64,000 nucleotides of DNA, taken from assembly GCF_044324875.1 (NCBI RefSeq), contig NZ_CP172185.1. One strand, written 5' to 3'. Positions 2,638-63,648 of the stretch are shown in pieces. Every line of letters begins with the position of its first letter. Positions within the stretch are counted from its first letter, which is position 1. Source of the stretch: Escherichia coli (GTDB lineage: Bacteria; Pseudomonadota; Gammaproteobacteria; Enterobacterales; Enterobacteriaceae). Position numbers and translations under genes: made by a program. Under the pieces are notes generated by a model, which worked only from the letters and a program-made list of their open reading frames with translations, did no database searches and was not told the origin of the DNA.

Positions 2638-4104
2638 TTAAATTTTGAGGGTGTTTAATAGCGCCTGATGCGCGCCGAATTGTGCGATTTGTTGCCAGGC
2701 TTGTTCGATGGTCTGCACAAAATGCGGGTTATCTGGCAGATCATCACCGAAAACTTCACGCAGGGAAAGCAGGGCGGTGACGCGTTGTTCACTGCTGCTG
2801 CCCGCAACAAGTTCGCGAATTTTATCGCTAAGCGGATCGCGAACATCAATGGCATTTCCGGCATCATCAACGCCGCTGACGTAACGCATCCAGCCTGCAA
2901 CGCCTAATGCCAGCATCGACCAGTCCGTTTCGCGCCCCAGATGTATGCGAATACCTGCCAGCATGCGTTGCGGTAATTTCTGGCTACCATCCATTGCGAT
3001 TTGCCAGGTCTTATGTTTCAGCGCCGGATTAGCAAAACGTGCAATTAACTTATCCGCATATTGTGTTAAATCGACATCTTTAATTCGCAGTGTTGGCGCT
3101 TGCTCATCCAGCATTAATGTTCTGGCGGCATGGCGAAATGCGCGATCCTGCATGCAATCACTGATATGGGCGAATCCTGAGAGGTAACCCAGATAAGCGA
3201 GAAAAGAGTGGCTGCCATTAAGCATACGCAGTTTCATCTCTTCCCATGGCAGGACATCATTCACCATTTGTACACCTGCGACTTCCCAGGCAGGACGCCC
3301 AGCGACGAAGTTATCTTCCACCACCCACTGGATAAACGGTTCGCAGCTAATCGCGCAGGGATCATTCACCCCCAGATGCTGGCTGATTTCCGCTAGTGAT
3401 TCGTCGGTTGCAGCCGGAACAATGCGGTCGACCATAGTTCCCGGAAAACTGACGTGTTCTTTTATCCACCCGGCGAGTTCTGGCGAACGTTTTTCTGCCA
3501 TTCCCAGCACCGCGTTTTTCACCACATGGCCATTGTCGGGAATATTGTCGCAGGAGAGCACGGTAAACGGTGTAAGGCCGCGCTCACGGCGGCGTTTCAG
3601 TGCTTCGACGAGAATTCCCGGTGCGGAGTGAGGTTCTTCAGGATTTTGAAGATCGTGAATAATCCGCGGATTGCTGGTGTCGAGTGCACCGGTGGCTGGG
3701 TCAATACAATAGCCTTTTTCGGTAATCGTCAGGGAAACAATTGCCACCTGTGGCTCGCAAAATTTCTCAATAATTGCCGCTAAGGAATCCAGTTTTGCAT
3801 TCAGGCATTCGTGAACGGCACCGACAATTATCGCCTGATTGCCGTCCGCACCTTTCTCCAGCACGGTATATAAATGGTTCTGTGCGCGGAGCTGGCTCAT
3901 CAGTTGATCGCCGCTGAACAAGCTGATCTCACAGATTCCCCAGTCGCCGCCCTGGGCATTCAGCACACGATCGGTCAGTAACGCCTGATGTGCGCGGTGA
4001 AAGGCTCCGAAGCCAAAATGAACGATACGTGATTGCAACTGCTGGCGATCGTAGCGTGGAGCGTGTACATGATGCGGGAGCGTAGCGGAGGCGATTGTAT
4101 TCAT
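2638..4104 (-). CDS. yeiQ: Mannitol dehydrogenase-family oxidoreductase
   Basis: Track ORF 491 aa; start moved to MNTIASA (488 aa); long-chain mannitol DH-like sequence. Confidence 0.8.
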   Translation of the reverse strand: MNTIASATLPHHVHAPRYDRQQLQSRIVHFGFGAFHRAHQALLTDRVLNAQGGDWGICEISLFSGDQLMSQLRAQNHLYTVLEKGADGNQAIIVGAVHECLNAKLDSLAAIIEKFCEPQVAIVSLTITEKGYCIDPATGALDTSNPRIIHDLQNPEEPHSAPGILVEALKRRRERGLTPFTVLSCDNIPDNGHVVKNAVLGMAEKRSPELAGWIKEHVSFPGTMVDRIVPAATDESLAEISQHLGVNDPCAISCEPFIQWVVEDNFVAGRPAWEVAGVQMVNDVLPWEEMKLRMLNGSHSFLAYLGYLSGFAHISDCMQDRAFRHAARTLMLDEQAPTLRIKDVDLTQYADKLIARFANPALKHKTWQIAMDGSQKLPQRMLAGIRIHLGRETDWSMLALGVAGWMRYVSGVDDAGNAIDVRDPLSDKIRELVAGSSSEQRVTALLSLREVFGDDLPDNPHFVQTIEQAWQQIAQFGAHQALLNTLKI

Positions 4105-30991: not shown

Positions 30992-32512
30992 ATGGTCAGC
31001 TCAACGACTCCGTCTTCCGGGGAATACTTGTTGGAAATGAGCGGTATCAACAAGTCTTTTCCTGGTGTTAAGGCACTTGATAACGTTAATTTAAAAGTCC
31101 GGCCACATTCTATCCATGCATTAATGGGGGAAAACGGCGCAGGAAAATCAACATTATTAAAATGCCTGTTTGGTATTTATCAAAAAGACTCCGGCACCAT
31201 TTTATTCCAGGGTAAAGAGATCGATTTCCATTCTGCAAAAGAAGCGCTGGAAAATGGTATTTCGATGGTACACCAGGAGTTAAACCTGGTATTACAACGT
31301 TCGGTGATGGATAACATGTGGCTGGGGCGATATCCCACCAAAGGCATGTTTGTCGATCAGGACAAAATGTACCGCGAAACCAAAGCGATTTTTGATGAAC
31401 TGGATATTGATATCGATCCGCGTGCGCGCGTCGGCACATTATCCGTTTCGCAAATGCAGATGATCGAAATCGCCAAAGCGTTTTCCTATAACGCGAAAAT
31501 TGTGATTATGGATGAACCGACTTCTTCGTTAACCGAAAAAGAGGTCAATCATCTGTTCACTATTATTCGTAAATTAAAAGAGCGCGGCTGCGGTATTGTT
31601 TATATCTCACATAAAATGGAAGAAATCTTCCAGTTATGTGATGAAGTTACCATATTGCGCGACGGTCAGTGGATCGCCACTGAACCGCTGGCAGGACTGA
31701 CGATGGACAAGATCATCGCCATGATGGTTGGGCGTTCTCTTAACCAGCGTTTCCCTGACAAAGAAAACAAGCCGGGCGAAGTGATTCTTGAAGTGCGTAA
31801 CCTGACGTCGCTGCGCCAGCCATCGATTCGCGATGTGTCGTTTGACCTGCATAAAGGGGAGATCCTCGGTATTGCCGGTCTGGTGGGGGCGAAACGTACC
31901 GATATTGTTGAGACGTTATTTGGTATTCGCGAGAAATCGGCTGGCACCATTACGTTGCACGGCAAAAAGATCAATAACCATAATGCCAACGAAGCCATAA
32001 ACCACGGATTTGCACTGGTAACTGAAGAGCGCCGCTCAACGGGAATTTATGCCTATCTGGATATCGGTTTTAACTCGTTAATTTCCAATATTCGCAACTA
32101 CAAAAATAAAGTTGGTTTACTGGATAACTCGCGGATGAAAAGCGATACCCAGTGGGTGATTGATTCGATGCGGGTAAAAACACCGGGGCATCGGACGCAA
32201 ATTGGTTCGCTCTCCGGCGGTAATCAGCAAAAGGTGATTATTGGTCGCTGGCTACTAACGCAACCAGAAATATTAATGCTCGATGAACCGACGCGCGGTA
32301 TTGATGTCGGAGCGAAGTTTGAAATTTATCAGTTAATTGCCGAGCTGGCGAAGAAAGGCAAGGGGATTATTATTATCTCCTCCGAAATGCCAGAGCTGTT
32401 AGGGATAACAGACCGTATTCTGGTCATGAGCAATGGTCTCGTTTCTGGAATTGTCGATACAAAAACAACAACGCAAAACGAAATTCTGCGTCTTGCGTCT
32501 TTGCACCTTTAA
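30992..32512 (+). CDS. mglA: Galactose/methyl-galactoside ABC transporter ATPase (duplicated ABC domains)
   Basis: 506 aa, two Walker A motifs. Confidence 0.93.
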
Positions 32513-45444: not shown

Positions 45445-45617
45445 AAAGTTCTTTTGTGTTGCATTGCTGGCGTAAATGTCAGCAATGCAGCATTTCCTCA
45501 CGATTCTCCTTTGACGATCGCACTTTTTGCTCGTTATGATGGCGTCGCTAGCCTCAGTAAATCCTTACTCCGGCGGTGCGCAACCCGTGCGCGTGAACCA
45601 CTATCTGAATGCTCATC

Positions 45618-54932: not shown

Positions 54933-55616
54933 TTAAATGCCGAGTGGGAAAATATCATGGCCTTGTTCCTGCCAACTGGTAAGTTGCTGCTGTTGGGCGG
55001 AGGTTCGATTTTCACCGCACCACACCAGCAATGTACGGCCTTCGAACAGTTCAGGGCGTAGTTGATTGAGCGAGTGGGCGAGGACATCAATGCGCCATCC
55101 TTGTTGACTGGCAATCCAGCCCTCCAGCCATAGACGGGTGGTATCGTGAATATTCCAGCCAACCACCAGCGCATCTTTACCCTGTTTTTTACGTGCCGAA
55201 GCCAGGCAAATGGCGATGTAGTTGATCAGTACGCCGTCAAGGATCGCCAGCAGCGCCTGGAGGGTCGGTTGTTGGCACTGAAGTCGTCGGCGCAGAGGAA
55301 TAAACAGATGCGTGGTGAGTGTCTGGGCAGGGTAATCCTGACCGCGCTCTTTGATCCACGTTCGCAGGCTATGCAGATTGCCGCTTTGCAGGTAAGTCAG
55401 TAATGTTTCTTGCTGATCGCGCCAGCCGTTCTGCACATCAACATTTTCATTACTGAGCAGCATTTTAACTTTGCTGACCTGCACGCCGTTGTCGATCCAG
55501 CGTTTGATCTCGCGGATCCGGTCAATATCGGCATCGTTGAACAGCCGATGGCCGCCGTCTGTCCGTTGCGGTTTCAGCAATCCGTAACGCCTCTGCCACG
55601 CGCGTAACGTGACAGG
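54933..55616 (-). pseudogene. mlrA: MerR-family regulator MlrA (YehV) lacking its 5' end, interrupted by prophage insertion
   Basis: Reading frame matches MlrA from ...PVTLRAWQRRYGLLKPQRTDGGHRLF to C-terminus FPLGI; upstream in frame the expected N-terminus (MALYTIGEVALLCDIN) is absent and a stop lies at 55650-55652; no ATG start. Confidence 0.8.
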
Positions 55617-55654: not shown

Positions 55655-56941
55655 TTACCCCACTTTCTTATGGGGCATACATGGGACACTTTCAGATAGT
55701 CTTTTGTTAAGGAGTTCTATCTGTTCGTGATTGTTGTCTTTCATCCATGCTCCGTAAACATTGAATACCATTTGTGCGTTTGTGTGGCCCATCTGGCTTG
55801 CGATAAAACTAGGATTAGCTCCAGCGGCAAGTGACCAGCATGCATAAGTATGCCTGGATTGGTACGATTTTCTGTGTCTCAGACCTGCGCGTTTTAAGAT
55901 ACTTGTCCATGACTCCCTGATGGAGTCAACCTTATAGTGCGGTCCGGAAAACTGCCGCTGTTTTATTACCTGAGGACTAAAAACAAAAGTGCATTTATGC
56001 ACAGTACTTCTCCCATATTCCCTCTGCTTTACCTCTACAGAATGTTGCTTTCCAAGCATGGTCATTTCCGCCTGACTTTTAAGAGCATCAATAGCTGGTT
56101 GAACCAGATGAATTGTCCTTCCGGTGCCAGCATCGGTTTTTGGTGGAGTGAATTCGCCAAGTTTTGTATAATTCCTACGGATGGTTATAGTCCTTGCTTT
56201 AAGGTCTATATCTTCCCATGCCAGCGATACCAACTCCCCGTGACGAATACCCGTGTATACAGCGAGAATCCACAGGTTTTTTGTTTGTTGATGACGGCAA
56301 GCCTCAATAAAACGAATAAATTCGTCACGGGTGAGAGGATCTGGTTTTACCTTGGACTTTTTTAAGGGAGCCAGACCGTTAAATGGGTTTCCTGAGGTAT
56401 AACCATTATCTGTTGCAAATTGAAACATTCCAGCTATGGTTGTCATATAGTAGTTTACCGTGACCACTGAGCGCCCTTTTATGGAAGAAGTCTTTCCATT
56501 AGAAAGCTTTTGGTAACCGGTCAACAAATCTCTCCTTACGAAAAGTAAATCCTCTTTTGTTATGGATGAAACCAGTTTTTTTTCACCTAACATTGGTAAC
56601 ATGTTTTTAATTACTGACTGGTAACGGTTAAGTGCATTCGCACAAATCTCAATTTTCTTAAGGTCCAACCATTTTTCCGAAAGTGCCTTAACGGTTATCT
56701 CTCTTTTTCCCAGACCAAAGTGTTTCAGGTTAGGGGAATTAGGGAACTGCGCGGCGTAGTCGAAACTCCCCATTCTGATTGCAAAACAAACGGAAGTGCG
56801 AAGTTCACCTGCGATCTTCCGGTTTTTGGCGGTGTCAGGAACACCGAGGTTTTCTCTGACACGTTTGCCATTATAGTGAAACCATATACGGAGTGATCCT
56901 CCATGGTTTTCAACGCCTGTCGGGTATGATACGTTACTCAT
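55655..56941 (-). CDS. int: Phage tyrosine integrase
   Basis: 428 aa; conserved boxes TGIRHGELVSL and HRKSYQSRHTYACW ... VYGAW; SD gggagg; 3' end faces the att junction. Confidence 0.88.
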   Translation of the reverse strand: MSNVSYPTGVENHGGSLRIWFHYNGKRVRENLGVPDTAKNRKIAGELRTSVCFAIRMGSFDYAAQFPNSPNLKHFGLGKREITVKALSEKWLDLKKIEICANALNRYQSVIKNMLPMLGEKKLVSSITKEDLLFVRRDLLTGYQKLSNGKTSSIKGRSVVTVNYYMTTIAGMFQFATDNGYTSGNPFNGLAPLKKSKVKPDPLTRDEFIRFIEACRHQQTKNLWILAVYTGIRHGELVSLAWEDIDLKARTITIRRNYTKLGEFTPPKTDAGTGRTIHLVQPAIDALKSQAEMTMLGKQHSVEVKQREYGRSTVHKCTFVFSPQVIKQRQFSGPHYKVDSIRESWTSILKRAGLRHRKSYQSRHTYACWSLAAGANPSFIASQMGHTNAQMVFNVYGAWMKDNNHEQIELLNKRLSESVPCMPHKKVG

Positions 56942-58670: not shown

Positions 58671-59009
58671 TTACATGTTCCCCATAACGGTATCGCTCAT
58701 GTCGTTAACCATGCTCTGCCAGATTTCTTTGCCGCTTTGCGTCAGCTCGTTTCCACGAACGCATTTGCTTAACAGCTGAATACCAACGGCTTCCCATTGG
58801 GGGTAATTTTCTTTGATAGCCTTCAGAGCATAACCATCGATTAAATCCCTGATACCTTTAACCCCACCGATGATGTTTACTCGTATGGATTGCCCATTGA
58901 CATTAATCATGAAATGATCTCCGTTGGTGGCGGATATGTGGTTGTGCAGTGCAGCCGCATACTGATTTGCCAGCGCATTGAGGCGGAAATTTTGTGTAAT
59001 GAGTGGCAT
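58671..59009 (-). CDS. Hypothetical phage protein (112 aa)
   Basis: Track ORF; TAATG overlap with the upstream ORF6N gene. Confidence 0.5.
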   Translation of the reverse strand: MPLITQNFRLNALANQYAAALHNHISATNGDHFMINVNGQSIRVNIIGGVKGIRDLIDGYALKAIKENYPQWEAVGIQLLSKCVRGNELTQSGKEIWQSMVNDMSDTVMGNM

Positions 59010-59755
59010 TATTTACCCTCCCAACCAATCACCTGAAACAGCCCCATTTTCGGGTGATACCAGCGGGTACCGCGTGGCTCTGCCTCTGACATCATCTGAT
59101 GAAATGCTTTCATGAACGGCTCAAGCTCCACGATAGCCCGGCGAGAAAGAAGACCATCTGGCGTCATAAATTCGTGCGTATCGGTTGGGATGCTGTAGGC
59201 ATTGACCAGATTGCGGCACTTGGCATCAGTCATTCCGCTTTTGGCGACCACCTGGCGATAACCGACATATCCGGCGCGCATATTTCCGCGTTTGATGTTC
59301 TCCACAGCTTTGGTGACCGTTTCGATCTTCTCTTCAACATGACTCAGGCGCTTCTGCTGGCGAACGGCATCGGCGGCCATTGCAGCGATCATCTCCATTT
59401 CCGTCAGCGGCGCGTGAGTTCGGAAATAGCTGTTAACCAGTTCGCGCTGAACCTGCCATGCAAGAGTATCGTTAAAAGGCTTCGTCAACATCAGGTAACC
59501 AGACTCGAAAAGAATGATCCCTTTGGCAGTTCGCGCGGCAAAGGCATCAGAAAGTGACTCCGTACGTATTACGTCCGCAGTCATTTCAAGAAAATCCACC
59601 CCTTCGATAAAGTGAGAACGGTTGCGGTTAAACGCAGCACGGGCGGTACCTTCCGGGCGCTGGTGGACGTCATCAATCATTGCAAATGTCACAACACGCT
59701 GACCGCGATATTCGATTACCGGAAACTGTTTGTTGTTGATGGTTACAGTATTCAT
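59009..59755 (-). CDS. ORF6N/KilA-N domain protein (antirepressor-like)
   Basis: Start at MNTVTINNKQFPVIEYRGQRVVTF..IDDVHQRPEGTA (SD ggag 7 nt upstream); N-terminal pattern typical of ORF6N/KilA-N DNA-binding domain. Confidence 0.6.
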   Translation of the reverse strand: MNTVTINNKQFPVIEYRGQRVVTFAMIDDVHQRPEGTARAAFNRNRSHFIEGVDFLEMTADVIRTESLSDAFAARTAKGIILFESGYLMLTKPFNDTLAWQVQRELVNSYFRTHAPLTEMEMIAAMAADAVRQQKRLSHVEEKIETVTKAVENIKRGNMRAGYVGYRQVVAKSGMTDAKCRNLVNAYSIPTDTHEFMTPDGLLSRRAIVELEPFMKAFHQMMSEAEPRGTRWYHPKMGLFQVIGWEGK

Positions 59756-59798
59756 TTTTATCTCCAGACAGCCCGGCGTGTAATACCGGGCATATGTA

Positions 59799-60626
59799 TT
59801 ACTTAACCTGAATAAATGGTGTGTTGGCACCGCTGGTCATGTATTGCGGCAGTGTACCGTTCCACTTGTTGATGGCTTCCAGCTCCATAACGTTTGGGTT
59901 CTGGCGCAGAGCTTCACCGCGTAAACGAATAGCATCGGCTTCGGCCTGGGCTTTTGTGCGAATCGCATCTGCCTGTCCGGCAGCTTCCGCGCGCAACATG
60001 TTGGCTTCCGCTTCGCGCTGTTTTACTTCCTGCTCGCGTTGCAGGGTTTTCTGGTTGGCCGTGACTTTGGCATTAATGCTGTCGATAACAGTAGGCGGGT
60101 ACTCCGGCTTACCCACATATGAGAGGCTCATTACCTGAATACCGATGGGCGTCATTTCTTCCTGAATGTCTTTAAGAGCTGCATCCAGCAGCTCAGACTT
60201 GCCGCCGTCGATAAATTTGTCGGTGGTCATTTTGCTGGCCAGTCGGTTGAGTGCGTCGGCTATCTTCTGGCGCAGGTCGGTGTCGGTAATGTCGTCCACG
60301 CCTTTGCGGTAGGTCTGAAAGACTGTGGTAACTTTGGATGGATCAACTTTGTAGGCCACGCCGATGTGATAGCCGATGGTTGTACCGTCACTCATCTGGA
60401 AACTGAATGGATCATCGTAGGTCTTCATCTGCTTAAAGGTCGGGAAGATGTAAACCTCAGTGTTCCATCCCGTCCAGTAGCGCCCAACACCGACCACTTC
60501 ACCGACGCCTTTATCGTCGCCCAGTTTGTTTACTTTGATGCCCACATTACCAGGCTCAACGCGATCGCAACCGACAAGGCCAATGGTCGGCAGAACAATG
60601 GCTAAAGCAAAAAGTAATTTTTTCAT
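59799..60626 (-). CDS. SPFH/band-7 (prohibitin/HflKC-like) lipoprotein
   Basis: 275 aa; signal peptide with lipobox LVGC; SPFH-type core and C-terminal coiled-coil QREQEVKQREAEANMLRAEAAGQADAIRTKAQAEADAIR. Confidence 0.7.
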   Translation of the reverse strand: MKKLLFALAIVLPTIGLVGCDRVEPGNVGIKVNKLGDDKGVGEVVGVGRYWTGWNTEVYIFPTFKQMKTYDDPFSFQMSDGTTIGYHIGVAYKVDPSKVTTVFQTYRKGVDDITDTDLRQKIADALNRLASKMTTDKFIDGGKSELLDAALKDIQEEMTPIGIQVMSLSYVGKPEYPPTVIDSINAKVTANQKTLQREQEVKQREAEANMLRAEAAGQADAIRTKAQAEADAIRLRGEALRQNPNVMELEAINKWNGTLPQYMTSGANTPFIQVK

Positions 60627-60811
60627 CTTTTATCCTTAGAAAAAGAAAGACCCTTATAAATGGCATAAATGCAGGGCGGGGTCAGACACGCCAGAGCAAA
60701 GCCAGAAATCACTGCTATCGTATCCTTCATGGATATAAGGAACGGAACGAGTAATCCGTAAATGCATGCGATAATTGCCAGTAAAATTACTATTGTGAAA
60801 TACAGTCTCAT
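60623..60811 (-). CDS. Small two-TM membrane protein coupled to the SPFH gene
   Basis: 62 aa MRLYFTIVILLAIIACIYGLLVPFLISMKDTIAVISGFALACL...; 4-nt start/stop overlap with the SPFH gene. Confidence 0.55.
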   Translation of the reverse strand: MRLYFTIVILLAIIACIYGLLVPFLISMKDTIAVISGFALACLTPPCIYAIYKGLSFSKDKR

Positions 60812-62988: not shown

Positions 62989-63648
62989 TTAAATTTGCAT
63001 ACGCATCTCAACGACAACACCAAGAATTTCACAATCGCCATTGATAGGGATCAGTGGATAGCGTGGGTTTAGTGGTTTTAAGAAACATTGTCCTGCGTCT
63101 TCAATGTACTGTTTGAGGGTTGCTTCACCGGAATTTTTGAGTCTAGCGACAACATATTTTCCTGAAAAAACTTCTTTGTCAGGGTTTACAAGAATGTTCA
63201 TGCCTTCAAAGATTGAGAACTCCCCATTCTGTGACGTCATTGAGTCACCTTTTACCTCCAGCCAGAATCCGTTATCTCCTGCATATATATCGCTACCGAT
63301 CCAATCTTCTGGATAAGGTATGTAATCTTCGCAGTTCCAAGGGCCGGCGCTCACCCATGTTAATTTTGGGTATCTGTAACGCGTTGGAGAAGCTGGTTTG
63401 GGGTTTCGAACGTTTTGAATACTATCTGTAGGTGAAGGTTCGCTACCATCAAGGAGCCATTTAGGTGAGCATTTTAATGCATCTGCGATCCTGAATAGGT
63501 TTGACGATCTTGTGTCTTGTGAGTCTCCTAACTCTATTTTGCTGATTGTTACACGTGAGACACCCGTCAATTTTGCCAGGTCATCTTGTGACATGCCTAG
63601 CTGAACTCTACGCATTAACAATCTCTGTCCAAAACTATCGTGTTCCAT
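62989..63648 (-). CDS. cI: CI-type phage repressor (HTH plus LexA-like S24 peptidase domain)
   Basis: 219 aa; N-terminal HTH MSQDDLAKLTGVSRVTISKIELG; C-terminal domain with GDSM serine motif and downstream lysine. Confidence 0.8.
   Translation of the reverse strand: MEHDSFGQRLLMRRVQLGMSQDDLAKLTGVSRVTISKIELGDSQDTRSSNLFRIADALKCSPKWLLDGSEPSPTDSIQNVRNPKPASPTRYRYPKLTWVSAGPWNCEDYIPYPEDWIGSDIYAGDNGFWLEVKGDSMTSQNGEFSIFEGMNILVNPDKEVFSGKYVVARLKNSGEATLKQYIEDAGQCFLKPLNPRYPLIPINGDCEILGVVVEMRMQI

Follow-up and report, generated by a model that had tools for sequence, protein, structure and literature searches.

What is the function of the C-terminal half of an ORF6N protein when this half corresponds to no named domain? 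The question is raised by a gene of a lambdoid prophage inserted at mlrA (yehV) in the Escherichia coli chromosome (assembly GCF_044324875.1, contig NZ_CP172185.1), in a stretch of 64,000 nucleotides analysed here as a whole and called the window. An original prediction, made from the letters of the sequence, placed an ORF6N/KilA-N protein at this locus, saw no motif in its last 140 residues or so, and suggested that they might carry an effector or interaction function. We find that the C-terminal half is, as judged from sequence comparisons, a conserved and swappable module of about 130 residues that forms a family of its own. Structure prediction models it as a putative coiled coil followed by a winged helix-turn-helix (HTH) domain. 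The gene and its ribosome-binding site are positioned as follows.

59009-59755, minus strand: complete gene for the ORF6N protein with its C-terminal module (248 codons plus TAA), from the list of open reading frames with translation, a RefSeq coding sequence and full-length homologues
59762-59765, minus strand: Shine-Dalgarno sequence GGAG, 6 nucleotides 5' of the ATG, read from the sequence

The open reading frame is genuine and conserved, far beyond what chance would produce. It occupies exactly the limits first proposed, on the minus strand, which the original prediction had not given; the start ATG is at 59755, the TAA stop codon at 59011-59009, and the product has 248 residues. RefSeq annotates the same 747-nucleotide coding sequence as "ORF6N domain-containing protein" in E. 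coli LH50-c, where the corresponding stretch is 98% identical. PHROG 1726 ("anti-repressor") is matched over the full length (E 1e-69), and among 5.8 billion database proteins a word-indexed search found 1776 that match at E<=1e-3. Full-length homologues showing 77-95% identity are found in Escherichia, Salmonella, Enterobacter, Citrobacter, Atlantibacter and others, and nearly all of them are named just "ORF6N domain-containing protein". Hundreds of enterobacterial genomes already contain the sequence, annotated by domain. A longer form starting at a GTG (59830, 273 residues) was rejected because it overlaps the upstream SPFH gene and because the homologues all begin at the MNTVTI/MKTVTI position. 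Literature searches retrieved no experimental work on the ORF6N plus C-module protein, and NCBIfam has no family for it. Searching the PDB by sequence with the full protein gave nothing, the best hit (E 0.87) being a coiled-coil protein, and no second copy of either domain was found within the 64-kb window.

59414-59755, minus strand: N-terminal ORF6N (KilA-N-like) domain, residues 1-114 (Pfam PF10543)

The N-terminal assignment is confirmed. The hidden Markov model (HMM) that defines the ORF6N family in Pfam (PF10543) matches residues 13-92 (59480-59719) over profile positions 3-85 of 86, with 50.2 bits and E 3.1e-13, well above the gathering cut-off of 27.8 bits, and by this measure the protein belongs to the family. 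The two halves of the protein seem to have separate histories. Among close homologues (window 59012-59755 compared with loci L005, L009, L010, L013 and L016), the head is 62-77% identical and the C-terminal module 92-94%. The G+C fraction is 0.487 in the N-terminal half and 0.535 in the C-terminal half.

The C-terminal half has no Pfam name. Neither Pfam nor NCBIfam has a model for residues ~115-248; residues 116-248 gave no match to ANT, ORF6C, P22_AR_C or Bro at E<=5, and none of 31 diverse family members matched ANT, ORF6C, P22_AR_C or Bro-N at E<=1. In PHROGs, on the other hand, phrog_6610 (function uncharacterised, 122 positions) covers residues 122-247 alone. Hence, the view that this half lacks a recognisable motif holds for Pfam and NCBIfam but not for PHROGs. 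The family is small, with 58 clusters at E<=1e-3 in an exhaustive HMMER profile search of 1.84 billion representative proteins, clustered at 50% identity. Nearly always, the module forms the last ~130 residues of a protein that is 230-290 residues long. In 28 full-length representatives, it is preceded by heads of the Rha (11), Bro-N (3), ORF6N (3), KilA-N (2) or AntA (1) type, the remainder being unassigned. Apparent stand-alone modules in Klebsiella phages turned out to be 240-residue proteins with another head, and a 131-residue Budvicia protein is a candidate stand-alone module.

A tblastn search against phages also recovered the C-terminal half, at 72-87% identity and behind another N-terminus, in Shiga toxin (Stx)-converting phages, phiP27, D6 and Klebsiella phages, where it belongs to proteins labelled "DNA-binding protein", "antirepressor" or "Roi". 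In these proteins, the head is Rha, and the gene directly follows cro in the rightward operon. The window gene and these Rha plus module genes are homologous in DNA from nucleotides 355-361 onwards, that is from codons ~119-121, which locates the swap junction where the linker helix described below begins. Occurrence behind Rha, Bro-N, KilA-N, AntA and ORF6N heads is the signature of the 'Bro network', a set of domain-shuffling phage regulators reportedly defined by Iyer, Koonin & Aravind in 2002. With a network head and a tail that recurs behind other network heads, the protein is, from its domain composition, a member of this network. The ten Pfam domains that the network is listed with include ORF6N. 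The tail of the window protein is not among its named Pfam domains, but 144 unnamed segments have been catalogued there (PMC10111431), so that an unnamed tail is expected rather than exceptional.

Could the swapping itself be the reason for the gene's existence? The gene would then be related to a mobile gene resembling a homing endonuclease, or be what remains of one, and its domains would further their own spread by recombination without any part in regulation. The domain swapping is indeed striking, with a sharp junction, and the proteins of the Bro network have been likened to homing endonucleases (PMC10111431). Yet Pfam and NCBIfam detect no nuclease domain or catalytic motif, and the full-length architecture is stable, with strong amino-acid conservation across genera. 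We consider such an origin highly improbable.

The module was modelled with AlphaFold2 on an alignment of 31 sequences, with a mean predicted local distance difference test score of 84, exceeding 90 in the globular part. Three parts can be distinguished.

59288-59401, minus strand: predicted long linker helix with a heptad repeat, probable coiled coil, residues ~119-156 (AlphaFold2 helix, model residues 8-45, and hydrophobic spacing)
59126-59269, minus strand: predicted winged HTH core of the MerR/excisionase type, strand-helix-helix-hairpin, residues ~163-210
59018-59125, minus strand: predicted C-terminal helix and three short strands, residues ~211-246, with invariant H234-P-x-x-G238-x-F240 (AlphaFold2, and columns without variation in the alignments of 31 and 28 sequences)

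The predicted elements comprise a helix at 119-156, a strand at 163-165, helices at 166-173 and 177-186, a hairpin at 191-197/203-210, a helix at 211-224, and three short strands up to residue 240. In the linker helix, the hydrophobic residues L136, V139, I143, V146, V150 and I153 follow a 3-4 spacing, and six family members have a deletion of exactly 7 residues. A PDB search with the module profile returned only weak matches (E 0.1-1), to coiled-coil peptides (designed coiled coils) and to forkhead domains. From the hydrophobic spacing, the 7-residue indels and the weak matches to designed coiled coils, we infer that the linker helix is probably a coiled coil.

The structural neighbours of the modelled module in the PDB are the DNA-binding domain of pSK1 Par (score 6.8), RppC (6.6), a TerS-binding protein and not a DNA-binding domain, Pukovnik Xis (6.3), TorI (6.2), SoxR (6.0) and RacA (5.8), followed at lower ranks by MerR-family regulators, an AlpA excisionase and BldC. 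The alignments span 50-62 residues, and root-mean-square deviations for the six scored neighbours are 1.8-2.4 Å, except for RppC (3.9 Å). The window tail shares the predicted strand-helix-helix-hairpin core with the winged HTH domains of MerR, the excisionases (Xis, AlpA, TorI), pSK1 Par and RacA. However, sequence identity to MerR/excisionase-type domains is 4-15%, and the coiled coil precedes the winged HTH in the window protein whereas it follows it in these proteins. The HTH_17 and MerR HMMs gave marginal matches to single members of the family only (E 0.086 and E 0.22), and the MerR/Xis-type winged HTH fold of the tail is predicted by modelling and not by HMM. Matches in BFVD were only borderline, namely a KilA-N protein of Ralstonia phage Eline (E 1e-3), an "antirepressor" (5e-3) and KilAC proteins (E 0.4-0.9). 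The globular part is basic (pI 9.25), and residues G162, G174, K179 (where the second HTH helix begins), G201, H234, G238 and F240 are invariant or nearly so; both features are consistent with DNA binding. Overall, the suggestion of an effector half is not supported by this picture of a swappable module with a predicted coiled coil and winged HTH; DNA binding and oligomerisation are the more likely functions of the tail.

The model invites comparison with Roi of phage HK022, which Clerget & Boccard are said to have reported in 1996 as a DNA-binding protein. The authentic protein, taken from the HK022 genome, is a Rha plus ANT/KilAC protein and served as a positive control (ANT E 9.7e-33). Like the window protein, it is a two-domain early phage protein of ~240 residues with a head, a long linker helix and a globular tail of ~90 residues, the latter with a predicted strand-helix-helix-hairpin-helix order and MerR/Xis-type neighbours in the PDB. 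Moreover, the module of the window protein replaces KilAC in other proteins with a Roi-type Rha head, some of which are annotated 'Roi'. One Rha plus module protein has the Roi head; a run of 36 residues closing with ...RWRELEE is 100% identical in the two proteins, and from there on the tails differ. The module and KilAC are hence alternative tails on one head. The differences from Roi are also clear. The window head is ORF6N instead of Rha, and its tail gives no Pfam ANT match, does not have the loop and short helix that are inserted in KilAC between HTH and hairpin, and bears an extra beta cap with the H-P-x-x-G-x-F motif; in addition, the window gene lies in a leftward operon and the HK022 Roi gene in the nin region. 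ORF6N plus ANT combinations were found in two partial database records, one of which (P0302, partial or chimeric) has a head that is not close to the window head.

By sequence, the module and KilAC are not demonstrably related. The HMM of Pfam ANT/KilAC (PF03374) is not matched, the conserved motifs of the two families differ, and an hhalign comparison of the module (31 sequences) with KilAC (17-22 sequences) was not significant, with a probability of 8.6% and E 0.004 (a single comparison) over 52 columns, in which the linker helix and the HTH are in the same register. By sequence, then, this half does not match a known Ant/Bro domain, the result that the original prediction had named as its refutation. 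In modelling, KilAC itself is a MerR/Xis-type winged HTH. On the evidence of the models, the module is a probable structural counterpart of KilAC/ANT, given its position, its partner domains, its order of elements and largely the same PDB neighbours.

A resemblance to the winged HTH core was also seen in a match of the module profile to a metagenomic protein of 944 residues (P0169). This protein has ResIII/Helicase_C domains followed by about eight tandem units of ~55 residues (residues ~460-900), whose consensus PPEGYVS..FA..LG....TL...I....IETE.H.F resembles the core; the repeats give weak matches to HTH_17, MerR and HTH_28, consistent with DNA binding.

Our preferred reading, to which we give about an even chance, is that the protein is a DNA-binding early regulator dimerised by its coiled coil and similar to Roi, and not an enzyme or toxin. 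It would be made early, upon derepression of the prophage or infection, would dimerise or oligomerise through the linker helix, and would bind DNA through two kinds of DNA-binding domain, in an accessory early regulatory role like that of HK022 Roi. The more variable ORF6N head probably sets the specificity, and the highly conserved tail probably supplies a common DNA-binding and oligomerisation function. The difference in identity between head and tail fits this division, and it fits recombination at the junction too. A more tentative proposal, which we hold to be somewhat unlikely, is that the module is a distinct unnamed domain family that forms a conserved 'output' end of Bro-network proteins, binding for instance a conserved host factor or DNA structure, with interchangeable heads giving specificity. 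If true, and together with KilAC modelled as a MerR/Xis-type winged HTH, this would provide a first mechanistic handle on the common antirepressor-like phage proteins.

The position of the gene in the prophage bears on these readings. Its main landmarks are the following.

62989-63648, minus strand: cI-like repressor, HTH_3 plus Peptidase_S24
59799-60626, minus strand: SPFH/Band_7 lipoprotein, 275 residues, phrog_200
58671-59009, minus strand: uncharacterised gene for a 112-residue protein, phrog_37628, whose ATG overlaps the TAA of the ORF6N gene by 1 nucleotide (TAATG)
55655-56941, minus strand: integrase

Along the minus strand, the genes for the cI-like repressor and a second HTH protein are followed by small uncharacterised genes, the gene for a 62-residue membrane protein, the SPFH gene, the ORF6N gene and the 112-residue gene, and then by further small genes, DUF4222, excisionase and integrase. 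This order, from repressor to integrase, places the ORF6N gene in a leftward early (PL-type) operon. It occupies the same place, between repressor and xis/int and co-directional with them, in 12 related loci that include relatives of 44-46% identity; these loci come from E. coli, phage phi467, "EKP1", a Klebsiella phage (with the module behind a different head), Salmonella, Enterobacter, Citrobacter and metagenomic contigs. In L005/L006 and L011-L018, the upstream neighbour ends exactly 11 nucleotides before the ORF6N start, though this neighbour differs by locus.

This setting speaks against a true antirepressor. As such, the protein would inactivate a phage repressor, from its own prophage or from another one in the same cell, by protein-protein contact, with the C-module as interaction surface. 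Such a role is suggested by the PHROG labels and by the reputation of the Bro network; P22 Ant-type antirepressors have the PHROGs label and the shuffling network in common with the window protein, and MerR-like folds also serve protein binding (CbpM, RppC). However, the labels come from homology and not from experiment, and the predicted fold is that of DNA-binding domains. Furthermore, the gene lies inside a PL-type operon under the prophage's own cI-like repressor and, unlike those of the P22 Ant type, has no separate immunity region and no LexA control. Control independent of the main repressor, a feature of the antirepressor class, was found neither in the window nor in the 12 related loci. 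The idea of a LexA-controlled antirepressor was dropped, as the sole CTGT-N8-ACAG of the window is at 32396 and none is near the gene. Finally, the repressor next to it carries an S24 autocleavage domain, so that no antirepressor is needed for SOS induction. We judge an antirepressor unlikely and retain the DNA-binding early regulator as the preferred reading. A search for operator-like repeats in or near the gene yielded only short, chance-level ones. An embedded regulatory RNA like P4 eta/CI was also rejected, the only family that Rfam finds in the window being the Peptidase-S11 RNA at 45.5 kb.

The neighbouring genes suggest another role, that of a host-directed accessory factor acting by Kil-like growth inhibition, by binding a conserved host protein or a nucleoid factor, or in superinfection exclusion or anti-defence, instead of regulating phage genes. 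Moron-like genes (the SPFH lipoprotein, the small membrane protein and, in relatives, ParE-like genes) indeed accompany the gene in the accessory section of the early-left operon, its tail is highly conserved across host genera, and P1 KilA, a Bro-network relative, is toxic to the host. But PADLOC gave no match for the protein or six of its neighbours, no enzymatic or toxin motif is present, and both halves have folds typical of nucleic-acid binding. In addition, flanking genes vary between loci and no conserved multi-gene system is apparent. A host-directed factor therefore appears quite improbable to us, and a Roi-like regulator remains the reading that we prefer.

The variation of the neighbours can be followed gene by gene. 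The 112-residue gene is paired with the ORF6N gene in E. coli LH50-c, in phi467 (96% identity), in EKP1 (70%) and in the distant contig L007, where the ORF6N and 112-residue proteins have both diverged to ~46-48%; its product may sometimes act as a functional partner. Unrelated genes of 188, 195 or 74 codons take its place in Salmonella, Citrobacter and Enterobacter loci. In 51 complete E. coli genomes, the ORF6N gene occurs together with the SPFH gene and the gene for the 62-residue membrane protein; elsewhere, the SPFH gene is absent. An obligatory partnership with the SPFH gene or the 112-residue gene was discarded, both being absent or replaced in the Salmonella, Citrobacter and Enterobacter loci. 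The genes for the SPFH lipoprotein and the 62-residue membrane protein (phrog_1130) together span 59799-60811 on the minus strand, directly upstream in the same early operon, and may form a membrane-acting moron or exclusion module; neither has a PADLOC match. A ParE-like toxin gene (PF24732, ~73-79 residues) recurs in several related prophages (L011, L012, L016-L018, L001), where it lies upstream of the ORF6N gene at a distance of two or three genes.

Genes for Bro-network or "antirepressor-like" proteins rank with the commonest unexplained ones of temperate phages and satellites, and the C-terminal domains of these proteins have been only partly catalogued. For annotation, the gain is that the tail of the window protein, covered by PHROGs and without a Pfam name, can be described as a separate compact family with a predicted coiled coil and winged HTH, a probable structural counterpart of KilAC in the models. 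The vague label "antirepressor?" can be exchanged for the testable hypothesis of a dimeric DNA-binding regulator. The general picture of phage biology is unchanged, and the gene is an ordinary accessory early gene of a prophage.

Three minor observations concern one of the related loci and the rest of the window. The locus from 'Elizabethkingia phage EKP1' (L010, OM284015.1) contains, at 3001-3753, an ORF6N gene that is 80% identical in DNA to the window gene. The synteny of EKP1 is that of a typical enterobacterial lambdoid phage (PrtN-type xis, integrase, DinI), and its assignment to an Elizabethkingia host looks doubtful. The Peptidase-S11 RNA motif of Rfam lies at 45533-45613 on the plus strand, with 72.8 bits against a gathering threshold of 34.8; no other Rfam family was found in the window. 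At the end of the prophage, the integrase gene abuts the 5' end of mlrA/yehV (54933-55580, minus strand), which RefSeq annotates as 228 residues in a near-identical strain. The mlrA/yehV gene is a known attachment site of lambdoid and Stx phages, whose occupation can affect curli regulation.
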